Shown here in pieces: positions 5,972-9,763 of a stretch of DNA of 21,394 nucleotides. The stretch is from an uncultured virus (IMG/VR IMGVR_UViG_3300010283_000001) (taxonomy: Duplodnaviria; Heunggongvirae; Uroviricota; Caudoviricetes), in the IMG/VR virus record IMGVR_UViG_3300010283_000001; one strand, 5' to 3'. The notes under the pieces were generated by a model. The model ran no database searches. It had not been told where the DNA came from and saw only the letters and a program-made list of their open reading frames with translations. The translations under genes were made by a program, and so were the position numbers. Within the stretch, counting starts at the first letter, position 1; every line of letters starts with the position of its first letter.

Positions 5972-6355
5972 ATGAGCAATATCATCAACCTGGCAGCGAC
6001 TGTAAACGGTAAAGACTTTAACGGCGCTGTAGACCGTGATCCTATGTGGTGCTTATCAGTGTTTAAAGGCGATCTGGTTGAAGTTAGAACAACCGAAGGT
6101 TATAGCGACGATTATAAATGCGAGATTCATTTACACAACTGGTACACGGGTAAAACTTATGCGCTGAATCATGCGTTTATCGGCAAGGTTGAATATAGAG
6201 AAATGATCGACGAGGAAACAGGGCAAGATTTTAGCGATTATGTTTATATTCGTTCAGAAACATTAGCCGAACGTTTGATCGAGAAAATGAAAGCAAAAAA
6301 TAAAATTAATTTAGCTCATTGGATTGATATAACAAACGATTCTGCTTATCAGTAA
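5972..6355 (+). CDS. hypothetical protein, 127 aa
   Basis: ORF track; GAGG SD. Confidence 0.9.
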   Translation: MSNIINLAATVNGKDFNGAVDRDPMWCLSVFKGDLVEVRTTEGYSDDYKCEIHLHNWYTGKTYALNHAFIGKVEYREMIDEETGQDFSDYVYIRSETLAERLIEKMKAKNKINLAHWIDITNDSAYQ

Positions 6356-6370
6356 ATAACATTTCATACC

Positions 6371-6397
6371 AGGGCGCACAAAGCGCCCTTTCTTTTT
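6371..6397 (+). terminator. Rho-independent terminator ending the early block
   Basis: AGGGCGC-ACAAA-GCGCCCT-TTCTTTTT. Confidence 0.9.
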
Positions 6398-6599
6398 ACC
6401 TAAGTAAAGATGATAGCTTTTACCTATCAAAAACGTTCACCGAAAAAAGTGAATAGATCGCGGTATCGAGCTAATCAAGGAGCAGATGAACAACCATACC
6501 ATGAAGATCATAAGGCGCTTACAACGTGTTTTAGACCGCTTATTTTTAATTTCTCAATGTAACTATCTGGCAAAAACAGCCTTTTTCTTGTCTTTCCTC

Positions 6600-6676
6600 T
6601 TAAATGATAATCATTCTTATTTATAGCTGATTATTTATGCAATAAACTGAATAATGCAATAATGATAATCATTCTT
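6600..6676. promoter_or_regulatory. two Fur-box matches
   Basis: TTAAATGATAATCATTCTT 6600-6618 (14/19) and AATAATGATAATCATTCTT 6658-6676 (16/19) versus GATAATGATAATCATTATC. Confidence 0.7.
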
Positions 6677-6970
6677 AACTTATGACCATCTAACCTATAA
6701 AATAATAAGTTATCTAACTAAATTAAAACTAATTATCTCACCTTTATTTATAACTTACTGTTACTATCTCATTGATAACCTTATATTAAACAACAATAAC
6801 CAATATAAATCATTACTAAGCTAAATATAATCTATCTAACCTTTAAAACTATAACTATAATCTATCGAATTGTTGCACAAAGTAACTATTAAATTGTTAG
6901 TAACATTACTAAATAATTAATATCCTATCTATTTATGATCTAATCTTTACCTTCCTATCTATTACCTAAA

Positions 6971-7001
6971 TAATCATTTCATACAGTAATCATTTCATAC
7001 A
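6971..7001 (+). repeat. tandem direct repeat TAATCATTTCATACA x2
   Basis: 6971-6985 and 6987-7001 are identical. Confidence 0.9.
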
Positions 7002-7066
7002 ATAATTATAACAAGAAATATAATTCGCAAGCGTATCATTAGCAGCCTATGCCGGACACATAGGCG

Positions 7067-7212
7067 GCTAATAATAACGCAACTACACACCCCACATAAT
7101 AACCATCACCGATAGTTATTATTTGTGCTTATGTAGCTTGCAACAATTGCAAGCGCAACAATATACATGGTATATTGTATCCCTTACATTGTTGCGGTGC
7201 GTTATTATTAGC
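7067..7212. repeat. 15-bp perfect inverted repeat enclosing several hairpins
   Basis: GCTAATAATAACGCA 7067-7081 / TGCGTTATTATTAGC 7198-7212. Confidence 0.9.
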
Positions 7213-7501
7213 TAATGTTTAGAACATTGGCTATAATATAAGCTGCATATAATAAGCATAGCGAAGAATAATACTGATGATCATAATGCGCCACCCTCCA
7301 GGGGGCGCTATGTGCACACAAAGAAATCTTTCTTGTCAAGAAAAATATTACTACTATTGCGCAAAATTATTTATATCTGAATAGATGATTTTTTATGCTA
7401 TTGGCCCTAATTATACCCCCTTTTGTTGAGCCTACTTTCTTAAAAGCGCAATAAATCAGAATTATCTTGATTTTTAGTCGGTTTTATAGTACAGAAAGTA
7501 T

Positions 7502-7520
7502 GCAAATGATAATCATTATC
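7502..7520. promoter_or_regulatory. Fur-box match
   Basis: GCAAATGATAATCATTATC, 17/19 to consensus. Confidence 0.75.
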
Positions 7521-7597
7521 AGCTATCTTCCACGGTTGGCACTATTTCACGCAGGATCATTTCATTTGGCAAGGTGTATATAGATGTTTAGAAATGC

Positions 7598-7610
7598 CAA
7601 GCCATTGATT
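7598..7610 (-). promoter_or_regulatory. IHF consensus site
   Basis: Minus strand AATCAATGGCTTG = WATCAANNNNTTR. Confidence 0.55.
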
Positions 7611-7690
7611 TACTTAGAATTTATCTGTTTTGTTGTGAGTAATGCCTTTCTTGCTCAGAAAATAATCAAAAGTCTTATAAGTCATTGAAT

Positions 7691-7715
7691 GATAATGCAA
7701 ATGATAATTATTCTC
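7691..7715. promoter_or_regulatory. overlapping Fur-box matches
   Basis: GCAAATGATAATTATTCTC 7697-7715 (15/19) plus GATAATGCAAATGATAATT 7691-7709 (14/19), offset 6 bp. Confidence 0.7.
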
Positions 7716-7803
7716 ATTGATATTTGAGGGGGACGGTCGGCAGAAATCGGGGGGCGCTGAAAATCGCGTTAAGCACCTCTCGCAAGCGAGCAGTATTTTG
7801 CGG

Positions 7804-7816
7804 CAAGTTATTGATA
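7804..7816 (-). promoter_or_regulatory. IHF consensus site
   Basis: Minus strand TATCAATAACTTG. Confidence 0.55.
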
Positions 7817-7935
7817 TTATTGACTTTACGCTTATGAAAAGGGGGTGTGTCGAAATAAATCGGGTATACCGGAAAATTTTTGTGGCATAGATATTTATTT
7901 GTCTATATTATGTACAAAGGGGTGTGTTAAAAATA

Positions 7936-7972
7936 ATAGGTATATATAGAATAATTGATAGGGAAATCCTAT
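7936..7972. promoter_or_regulatory. OxyR-like box
   Basis: ATAG-N7-taga-N7-ATAG-N7-CTAT; three of four tetrads exact. Confidence 0.45.
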
Positions 7973-7990
7973 ACTAATCCCTATACTAAT
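7968..7990 (+). repeat. tandem repeat CCTATACTAAT x2
   Basis: 7968-7978 and 7980-7990. Confidence 0.85.
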
Positions 7991-8023
7991 TCCTCCATTA
8001 ATGATGTTCCTATGTTACTGTTC

Positions 8024-8052
8024 TTGTAATAGATGAAAAGACGCTGTATGAT
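8024..8052 (+). promoter_or_regulatory. sigma70 promoter opening the right-hand gene run
   Basis: TTGTAA-17-TATGAT. Confidence 0.7.
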
Positions 8053-8089
8053 GTGTGGCATGAAACGTAAACTTATAAAGGAGTCTGAT

Positions 8090-8467
8090 ATGTGTGTTCC
8101 TCTTAGCAGTCCACTGCTGTTAGAATTTTATAAAGCATGGATGGAAGATCATTCCTCAATGCATCGTGAGAATGTTGGCTTGTGTATTTGCCTTATGGAT
8201 TATCTGGCAACCACTATGTCAAAGAAAAAACCTACGCAAGAAGATATAGAACATTTCAAGATGGTTCGTAGTAAAACGCTAGAAGAGATGAAATTGCAAT
8301 TCACGTGTGCTGGGCTATCATCATTCCTGCCCTTTAATGATGACCTTCTGTGTTATGAAGATGAAGGTAAGAAACATTCTTGCCATACGAACCCAGAGCG
8401 ATTGCAGTGGGTGAAAGATCGTATTGCCGATTCATGTTTGGTGTTAGGGGGTGATAATGAAAAGTAA
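8090..8467 (+). CDS. hypothetical protein, paralogue family A, 125 aa
   Basis: Start moved to ATG8090 (AAGGAG); GLC...QF..AGL...PFN...CH.N..R..WV motif. Confidence 0.9.
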   Translation: MCVPLSSPLLLEFYKAWMEDHSSMHRENVGLCICLMDYLATTMSKKKPTQEDIEHFKMVRSKTLEEMKLQFTCAGLSSFLPFNDDLLCYEDEGKKHSCHTNPERLQWVKDRIADSCLVLGGDNEK

Positions 8468-9586: not shown

Positions 9587-9763
9587 ATGGATAAACAAAC
9601 TACTGTGTACTTAGTAACAAAGAATACCCCAGGCTGGAGCCAATGCAGCACTGTACCTTACAAAATCTGTGCAACACTAGAACTAGCACAACGTGCAGAA
9701 GCAGAAGTGAATGCCATGCAATACAGCTATGGTGAAATCATTCCTTTTACTCTTGAACAATAA
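9587..9763 (+). CDS. hypothetical protein, 58 aa (MDKQTTVYLVTK...)
   Basis: Manual translation; GAGG SD; fills the gap exactly. Confidence 0.8.
   Translation: MDKQTTVYLVTKNTPGWSQCSTVPYKICATLELAQRAEAEVNAMQYSYGEIIPFTLEQ

Follow-up and report, generated by a model that had tools for sequence, protein, structure and literature searches.

Fur, the ferric uptake regulator, is an iron-sensing host protein known for repressing iron genes. Host proteins can also have sites within the DNA-end signals of phages, as is the case for IHF site I1 in lambda cosB, which has a proven role in terminase assembly. Sites for Fur can be selected in vivo, and the selection of Vassinova and Kozyrev, like the classical assay, reportedly titrates Fur from multicopy DNA. 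In the sections of Chen 2007 (PMC2189734) drawn on here, a spacing of six bases is described as typical of Fur sites, and 303 of 363 host Fur clusters overlap a sigma-70 promoter. The same sections report that the site upstream of nohA was gel-shifted by 150 nM Fur and, citing Vassinova and Kozyrev, that it was recovered by in vivo selection for Fur sites; there it is interpreted as a promoter site of nohA, without a link to cos. The part of Mathieu et al. 2020 (PMC6969025) used here describes a Fur box upstream of sitABCD on lambdoid temperate phages.

In this report, we describe a group of four Fur-like boxes in the non-coding DNA of a virulent phage. The DNA analysed (the window) is a stretch of 21,394 nucleotides from an uncultured virus (IMG/VR record IMGVR_UViG_3300010283_000001) and comes from a virulent coliphage of the phi92 type (genus Justusliebigvirus in the subfamily Stephanstirmvirinae), being ~95% identical to phages of this kind. 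A search of a phage collection returned 83 records matching the window, 48 of which cover at least 80% of the query. The boxes lie in a non-coding gap between the homologue of phi92 gp248, at the end of the right arm, and the left-arm early genes, which start at 8033. Rfam, at the gathering threshold, finds no family in the window and ARAGORN no tRNA. Metatranscriptome contigs contain parts of the stretch (these contigs show no start, strand or level). The features of the region are as follows, in window coordinates and with the strand given where one applies:

5972-6355, + strand: phi92 gp248 homologue, closing the small-gene block of the right arm (ORF list; Paula_0069 and phi92 gp248 are annotated at the matching place)
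6371-6399, + strand: intrinsic terminator, a G+C hairpin then a T run (terminator scan; annotated in Paula; hairpin and T run invariant in three genera)
6600-6618: Fur box 1 (14/19) with an exact core, 6603-6615; invariant in seven Justusliebigvirus sequences (0 of 19 columns)
6635-6654: palindrome TTATGCA-N6-TGAATAA between boxes 1 and 2 (both arms kept in KP13-26 and phiWec181; second arm TGCATAA in relatives)
6658-6676: Fur box 2 (16/19) with an exact core, 6661-6673, situated 58 bp on from box 1 (motif scoring)
6680-7010, + strand: G-poor tract, ~20% G+C, with degenerate direct repeats (composition; repeat families D2, D4 and D11; similar tract in KP13-26 and phiWec181)
7020-7320: hairpin nest (15-nt perfect arms at 7067-7081 and 7198-7212; fold z -6.05 on the + strand and -7.48 on the - strand)
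7429-7771: putative direct terminal repeat, 343 bp (by homology to phi92; boundary motifs at 7424 and 7764)
7502-7520: Fur box 3, 17/19, core exact at 7505-7517, repeat positions 74-92 (same site at phi92 74-92 and 148343-148361)
7598-7610, - strand: match to the IHF consensus (pattern kept in three genera although the N positions change)
7691-7721: Fur box 4 cluster, three overlapping 19-mers (14, 15 and 14 of 19) at 6-bp offsets, the last of which stops 50 bp short of the repeat's right cut
8033-8467, + strand: first ORF of the left-arm early block (ORF list; Paula_0068 annotated at the matching place)

Scoring was carried out with the 19-mer GATAATGATAATCATTATC, taken as the Fur consensus. 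Against this 19-mer the boxes starting at 6600, 6658, 7502 and 7697 score 14, 16, 17 and 15 of 19, reproducing the values given in an earlier note on this DNA, and a motif scan finds the 13-bp core AATGATAATCATT on the + strand where that note had placed it, exact at 6603, 6661 and 7505 and with one mismatch at 7700-7712. The 6-bp-offset partner that had been described for the last box proved to be one of two: 14/19 partners are present 6 bp either side of box 4, at 7691 and 7703. Fur operators can be recognised by a match to the consensus (or at least three adjacent hexamers) and by overlapping sites offset by 6 bp; the former is seen in all four boxes, at the scores given above, and the latter at 7691, 7697 and 7703.

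The number of these matches is well above that expected by chance. Allowing up to two mismatches, AATGATAATCATT occurs 11 times on the two strands of the whole window against 2.19 expected, a count reached by none of 100 dinucleotide-preserving shuffles. All matches of at least 15/19 in the 21.4-kb window fall in the non-coding stretch. Between 6390 and 8032, seven positions score at least 14/19 (0.29 expected), three at least 15/19 (0.07 expected) and two at least 16/19 (0.01 expected), and in each case none of 300 shuffles reaches the count observed. FNR-type sites are absent from 6390-8032, with 22 matches window-wide against 25.25 expected. At the level of sequence, the four boxes are supported as operator-grade Fur boxes in a virulent phage.

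The host genome offers a means of calibrating these scores. In MG1655 (4.64 Mb), 12 distinct places score at least 16/19, with none in the reversed control, and at least eight of the 12 coincide with Fur sites in the portions of the tables of Chen 2007 (PMC2189734) and Myers 2013 used here (gpmA, nohB, ryhB, sodA, fhuF, nohA, sufA and fepD/entS); a score of 16/19 therefore predicts a Fur site with specificity. The density of such places in phi92 is approximately ten times that in the host. Box 3 has a 16-mer in common with the lambda/Qin nohA site beside cos, the lambda copy of which (48447-48465) does not differ by a single letter from the one that precedes nohA in prophage Qin. Within E. coli, the closest look-alike of box 3 (35 nt, 86-89% identical) is found 67 bp upstream of a plasmid FTR1 iron-permease gene. 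A search for Fur homologues (PF01475) gave no match in four phage records, the control being positive in 13 of 14 genomes. Considering the motif evidence as a whole, we regard it as probable that Fur binds the phage boxes.

The position of the boxes relative to the DNA ends, a context absent from the earlier note, becomes apparent on comparison with phi92, the record of which annotates a 343-bp repeat (DTR-L 1-343, DTR-R 148270-148612). This repeat maps by alignment to window 7429-7771, and the records of four relatives (PHB05, VEcB, W22 and PD114) start exactly at 7429; boxes 3 and 4 are therefore placed inside the terminal repeat, at distances of 74 bp (box 3, left cut) and 50 bp (box 4, right cut). 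The repeat has the same boundaries as that of phi92, and the motifs at its edges recur in three genera (left, TGTTG/AGC; right, TCGCGTT(A/C)/AGCA). The window carries one copy of the repeat and, by homology, the phage's own ends would be 7429 and 7771. With boxes 3 and 4 inside the repeat, each packaged genome would have them at both ends, and boxes 1 and 2 are located 753-829 bp before the right repeat copy.

Composition and fold z-scores bear out a further description in the earlier note, namely that the boxes form two pairs flanking the G-poor tract, where G content is 3-6% between 6690 and 6990, and the hairpin nest. The repeat also contains the IHF match listed above, found with WATCAANNNNTTR, taken as the IHF consensus; this motif is not enriched window-wide (six matches against 2.88 expected, with eight of 100 shuffles reaching six).

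Conservation in relatives had been put forward as one check on the boxes. Three genera were compared: Justusliebigvirus, an unclassified Klebsiella-phage lineage (represented by KP13-26) and Phapecoctavirus (phiWec181), all Stephanstirmvirinae, and Fur-like boxes occur at matching places in all three. The order of elements is also common to the three (terminator, Fur-like pair, G-poor AT-rich tract, hairpin nest, motif-bounded repeat), and the fold z-scores of the hairpin nest range from -5 to -8 across them, with KP13-26 and phiWec181 having windows with z of -5 to -7 at the matching place. Despite diverged flanks, the Fur-like boxes of KP13-26 (16, 15 and 14 of 19) and phiWec181 (15, 14 and 17 of 19) hold matching positions. 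The counterparts of box 1 by alignment score 16/19 in KP13-26 and 15/19 in phiWec181, the 58-bp spacing from box 1 to box 2 recurs in KP13-26, 1451 and 1509, and repeat position 73-74 of box 3 is kept in two genera. Box 4 is embedded in a conserved block that reaches the right cut; its cluster is the best-conserved block across the three genera and has no variable column (0 of 31) within the genus. Two changes are seen between genera: the repeat-internal box of KP13-26 is shifted by ~25 nt, and box 4 of phiWec181 attains its 17/19 via matches outside the 13-bp core. What these changes preserve is likeness to a Fur box, not one particular phage sequence. All five non-coding gaps tested are enriched in matches of at least 14/19, the real count not being equalled by any of 300 shuffles. 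The analysis thus far shows that the sites exist, how strong they are, where in the repeat they lie and that three genera have retained them.

Conservation within the genus adds little to this. Only four of the 88 box columns vary, compared with 235 of 1677 for the whole alignment (hypergeometric P = 0.003). This background is inflated, however, by 71 variable columns at the alignment edges, and conservation is equally high in the adjoining DNA at 7556-7955, where 13 of 400 columns vary.

A further mark of Fur operators is overlap with the -35/-10 of a sigma-70 promoter of a regulated gene. The earlier note had stated that they do not sit at the promoter of a protein gene and, judged from ORF lists and alignments, this holds for the genes conserved across genera, none of which starts next to any box. 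Promoter-like sites occur at or below chance levels in the three genera (13, 6 and 8 against 11.4, 10.7 and 6.4 expected) in a simple consensus scan that a weak promoter could escape. The few that overlap boxes differ in strand and geometry between genera, and classical promoter occlusion is consequently without support.

Two small ORFs close to the boxes were considered and set aside. ORF 7584-7688 (34 aa, with a good Shine-Dalgarno sequence) lies inside the repeat between boxes 3 and 4 and was rejected on account of an in-frame stop in two of seven Justusliebigvirus sequences; its variable columns at codon positions 1, 2 and 3 number three, two and zero, showing no third-position bias, its frame and length differ in KP13-26, and in phiWec181 it stops after seven codons. 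ORF 6486-6626 (46 aa), the end of which overlaps box 1, is intact in all seven sequences of the genus; both its start codon and its ribosome site are missing from the other two genera, and it is not at a box-controlled promoter. Also discarded was an IMG/VR anchor search with a non-Fur repeat pattern, the 13 loci from which comprised four true relatives and nine chance matches to three unrelated sequences.

Further boxes are present elsewhere in the phi92 genome. Across the whole record, scores of at least 16/19 are found only at 74, 137011, 137064, 147462 and 148343, corresponding to four unique places in 148.6 kb (five with the repeat counted twice) against none with the reversed-pattern control. 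Allowing up to one mismatch to the 13-mer core, there are 11 distinct places, every one of them in either copy of the repeat, in the gap at the right end or in a second gap; the unique core boxes number nine per phi92 genome. The second gap, at ~137.0 kb, is located between the convergent genes gp223 and gp224 and contains at least five boxes in ~120 bp, adjoining three iteron-like direct repeats of ~62 bp. Boxes are also present in the matching second gap of KP13-26. In the phage from which the window derives, such an array would sit ~10 kb to the left (upstream) of box 1, outside the window.

To place these results in a wider context, five control genomes (T4, T7, rV5, lambda and T5) were scored at the same threshold of at least 16/19. 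No match is found in T4 or T7, and that of rV5, a single one, is inside an annotated ORF. The only match in lambda is the site noted above, which lies 38-56 bp from the right cos end, and T5 has two unique matches, both in its 10.2-kb terminal repeat, one (228-252) inside the dmp gene and the other (9694-9712) inside the annotated injection stop signal. These sites suggest a link between Fur sites and DNA ends beyond this subfamily, albeit one drawn from three phage groups only, and the concentration of non-coding DNA near phage ends could by itself explain where the sites are found. In IMG/VR, a 14-mer of the box matches at least 121 stretches, and among the 80 listed seven lie within ~350 bp of a contig end, roughly as expected from contig sizes; the matches listed thus show no general association with contig ends.

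What might the boxes do? The reading that we tentatively favour, and which we regard as quite possible but short of probable, is that Fur docks on the terminal DNA and acts there in cis. The four palindromes would be genuine, selected sites for host Fur, built into a terminal non-coding module conserved across Stephanstirmvirinae (terminator, Fur pair, G-poor tract, hairpin nest and the 343-bp repeat with the second Fur pair). Iron-loaded host Fur dimers would dock on incoming genome ends and on concatemer junctions, giving rise to an iron-dependent protein cap. Such a cap would restrict traffic over the terminal DNA, most likely that of host RNA polymerase entering or starting in the promoter-like AT-rich DNA or that of spreading H-NS-type silencing, and terminal events would thereby be tied to the iron status of the cell. 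Binding of Fur in the cell, its relevance in cis and the process that it controls are what we infer here. Action in cis is favoured because the positions and spacing of the boxes are conserved, because the boxes are embedded among conserved elements and because there are parallels at the ends of other phages. Against this reading stand the second array of phi92, between convergent genes, and the T5 site within the dmp coding region.

The foremost rival, which we consider somewhat unlikely, is that the boxes form a decoy: the approximately nine unique core boxes per genome would soak up Fur as genomes multiply, derepressing iron uptake and RyhB to the benefit of iron-dependent phage functions. 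Fur is present at a few thousand molecules per cell, and 100 or more genome copies would hold a number of sites comparable to this pool. The position of the boxes away from gene promoters is also in keeping with a sponge, as is the crowding of the second gap. What makes the decoy a live rival is that the lambda-type look-alike was recovered by selection for Fur sites in vivo, according to the sections of Chen 2007 (PMC2189734) cited above. A sponge needs no fixed position, however, yet position, spacing and flanking blocks are all kept in three genera; lambda has one site only; and titration would be expected to peak late, after most DNA synthesis. The earlier note had listed the decoy first, and it is here that we part from it: its sites, their non-promoter location and the lack of a published description all stand, but no result favours the decoy specifically, and the other options that it raised, an architectural use of Fur and iron-gated control of an origin or non-coding RNA, are still to be reckoned with.

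Alternatively, the role of the host's Fur could be architectural, in some process that takes place where the DNA ends, be it the cutting or duplication of the repeat, packaging termination, injection or origin firing, in parallel with IHF at lambda cosB. The distances of box 3 and box 4 from the left and right cuts (74 and 50 bp), the proximity of the lambda site to the right cos end, the location of one T5 site in the injection stop signal, the conserved IHF-consensus match inside the repeat and the iteron-like repeats adjoining the second array of phi92 all fit such a role. We nevertheless think it distinctly unlikely: the distance to the ends varies widely among the phages compared (from 38 to ~500 bp), no cut lies close to boxes 1 and 2 or to the second array, and lambda growth is not known to have a fur phenotype. 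In a bolder reading, host Fur would dock generally at the DNA ends of coliphages that are not related to one another: at the repeat of phi92-like phages, at cosQ of lambda and, in T5, at the first-step-transfer DNA and the injection stop region. Instead of repressing a gene, it would act there as a checkpoint or speed bump, dependent on iron, for a terminal DNA transaction such as the end of packaging, injection or the firing of an origin; this we judge to be very unlikely.

Finally, a DNA-binding protein encoded by the phage could be what recognises the palindromes as its operators, their likeness to Fur boxes being superficial; this we hold to be highly improbable. In its favour, the similarity of the four copies exceeds the 19-mer (family D1, 69-83% identity over 29 nt), ATGCAA precedes boxes 2, 3 and 4, and the early region encodes many small uncharacterised proteins (the annotation of phi92 gp005 being a predicted transcription regulator). 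Against it, the core agrees with that of Fur in every letter, the forms seen in other genera shift in the direction of Fur-type variants, among them AATGAGAATCATT and GATAATGATAAT, the motif is also present in lambda and T5, which are unrelated phages, in vitro binding of Fur has been reported for the lambda version (Chen 2007, PMC2189734, in the sections used), and the phage records searched encode no Fur homologue.

Docking of Fur in cis on the terminal module, the reading favoured above, would, if true, represent a novel way of using a host factor, with a phage placing the host's iron sensor on its own DNA ends by means of operator-grade Fur sites that virulent phages have preserved in their terminal repeat over a long span of evolution. 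It would also couple phage development to iron status, a point of relevance for growth where iron is limited, for example in the gut or urine, in which therapy with phi92-like phages is under consideration. Given the parallel with the site beside lambda cos that Fur gel-shifts, the established tools of E. coli work would be enough for a direct test of the idea. That the arrangement is undescribed, as had been supposed, agrees with a full-text search of mainly freely available literature, in which no paper on Fur boxes in a phage terminal repeat was found; the word Fur does not occur in the portions of two papers on phi92-like phages covered here (PMC12210895 and PMC12695924).

Each of the known systems resembles this locus in part. 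IHF site I1 in lambda cosB, like the boxes of the window, is the site of a host DNA-binding protein built into a DNA-end signal, but the protein is a different one and its role is proven, whereas a role for Fur at DNA ends is a proposal. In common with E. coli Fur operators, as described in the sections of Chen 2007 (PMC2189734) used here, the phage boxes have a 19-bp inverted-repeat consensus, 6-bp overlaps and multi-site arrays, and their scores are as good as those of the host's best sites (the 12 MG1655 places that reach 16/19). Unlike host Fur clusters, they have a promoter signal not above chance and no iron gene nearby, and they lie in the terminal DNA of a virulent phage. The box upstream of sitABCD is likewise a host Fur box on phage DNA but, in the part of PMC6969025 considered, it places an iron/manganese transporter operon in the Fur regulon, and the window has no such gene. 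T5, too, is a virulent phage with Fur-like boxes, in its case predicted ones, in a terminal repeat, and differs in its phage family, in the length of its repeat and in having one site inside a gene. The site at the cos of lambda, Qin (nohA) and DLP12 (nohB) is a single one in temperate cos phages unrelated to phi92-like phages; like the boxes of the window, it is a phage-borne Fur box near a physical DNA end, its sequence includes the 16-mer also found in box 3, and its nohA copy binds Fur by gel shift (Chen 2007, PMC2189734, in the sections used).

The motifs at the left and right ends of the terminal repeat, whose position is set by homology to phi92, share the sequence GTTR/AGC around the cut and are invariant in the three genera compared, namely Justusliebigvirus, the unclassified Klebsiella-phage lineage represented by KP13-26 and Phapecoctavirus (phiWec181). 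Both may belong to the signal at which terminase cuts. In KP13-26 the left motif is found in three copies with a spacing of 67-69 bp. The features of the region and its surroundings are as follows:

6411-6429 and 7955-7973, two TGATAG-N-CTATC-type palindromes flanking the entire non-coding region
6635-6654, palindrome TTATGCA-N6-TGCATAA between Fur boxes 1 and 2, conserved in the three genera
7424-7431, left boundary motif TGTTG/AGC
7598-7610, minus strand, IHF-consensus match inside the terminal repeat
7726-7750, 7839-7863 and 7916-7940, a 25-nt G-rich motif (repeat family D3) present three times between box 4 and the first early gene
7764-7775, right boundary motif TCGCGTTA/AGCA
7804-7816, second IHF-consensus match
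phi92 record 136750-137110, outside the window, a second non-coding gap between the convergent genes gp223 and gp224

The IHF-consensus pattern at 7598-7610 is kept in all three genera, with the unspecified positions differing. The palindrome between Fur boxes 1 and 2 carries, in the window copy, a single change in one arm. The first of the two outer palindromes (6411-6429) is conserved in the three genera, and the pair may form the operator of a phage regulator. The D3 motif copies, two of the three preceded by ATTGATATT, may be early-promoter elements.

Between boxes 2 and 3, the plus strand at 6690-6990 contains 15-17% C versus only 3-6% G, a low-G, C-richer composition of the kind that characterises Rho-utilisation sites. 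This tract and the terminator at 6371-6389 could between them stop right-arm read-through ahead of the terminal repeat. Downstream of it lies the hairpin nest (7020-7320), which folds far better than shuffled sequences on either strand (z -6.05 for the plus strand, -7.48 for the minus strand); stretches with as much structure occur at the matching place in KP13-26 and phiWec181, and Rfam returned no match for the nest.

Among the matching records in the phage collection, four (MG065639, MG065645, MG065656 and MG065689) carry a Campylobacter-phage label and one (OR584014) a Pseudomonas-phage label. All five are 95% or ~80% identical to this coliphage region, and these host labels look doubtful.

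The gp223/gp224 gap of phi92 contains three ~62-bp direct repeats, each with an inverted repeat (TTGAA-N9-TTCAA) within it, followed by at least five Fur-like boxes across ~120 bp. Beyond the boxes come G+C-rich hairpins, and the whole arrangement resembles either an origin or a sponge.
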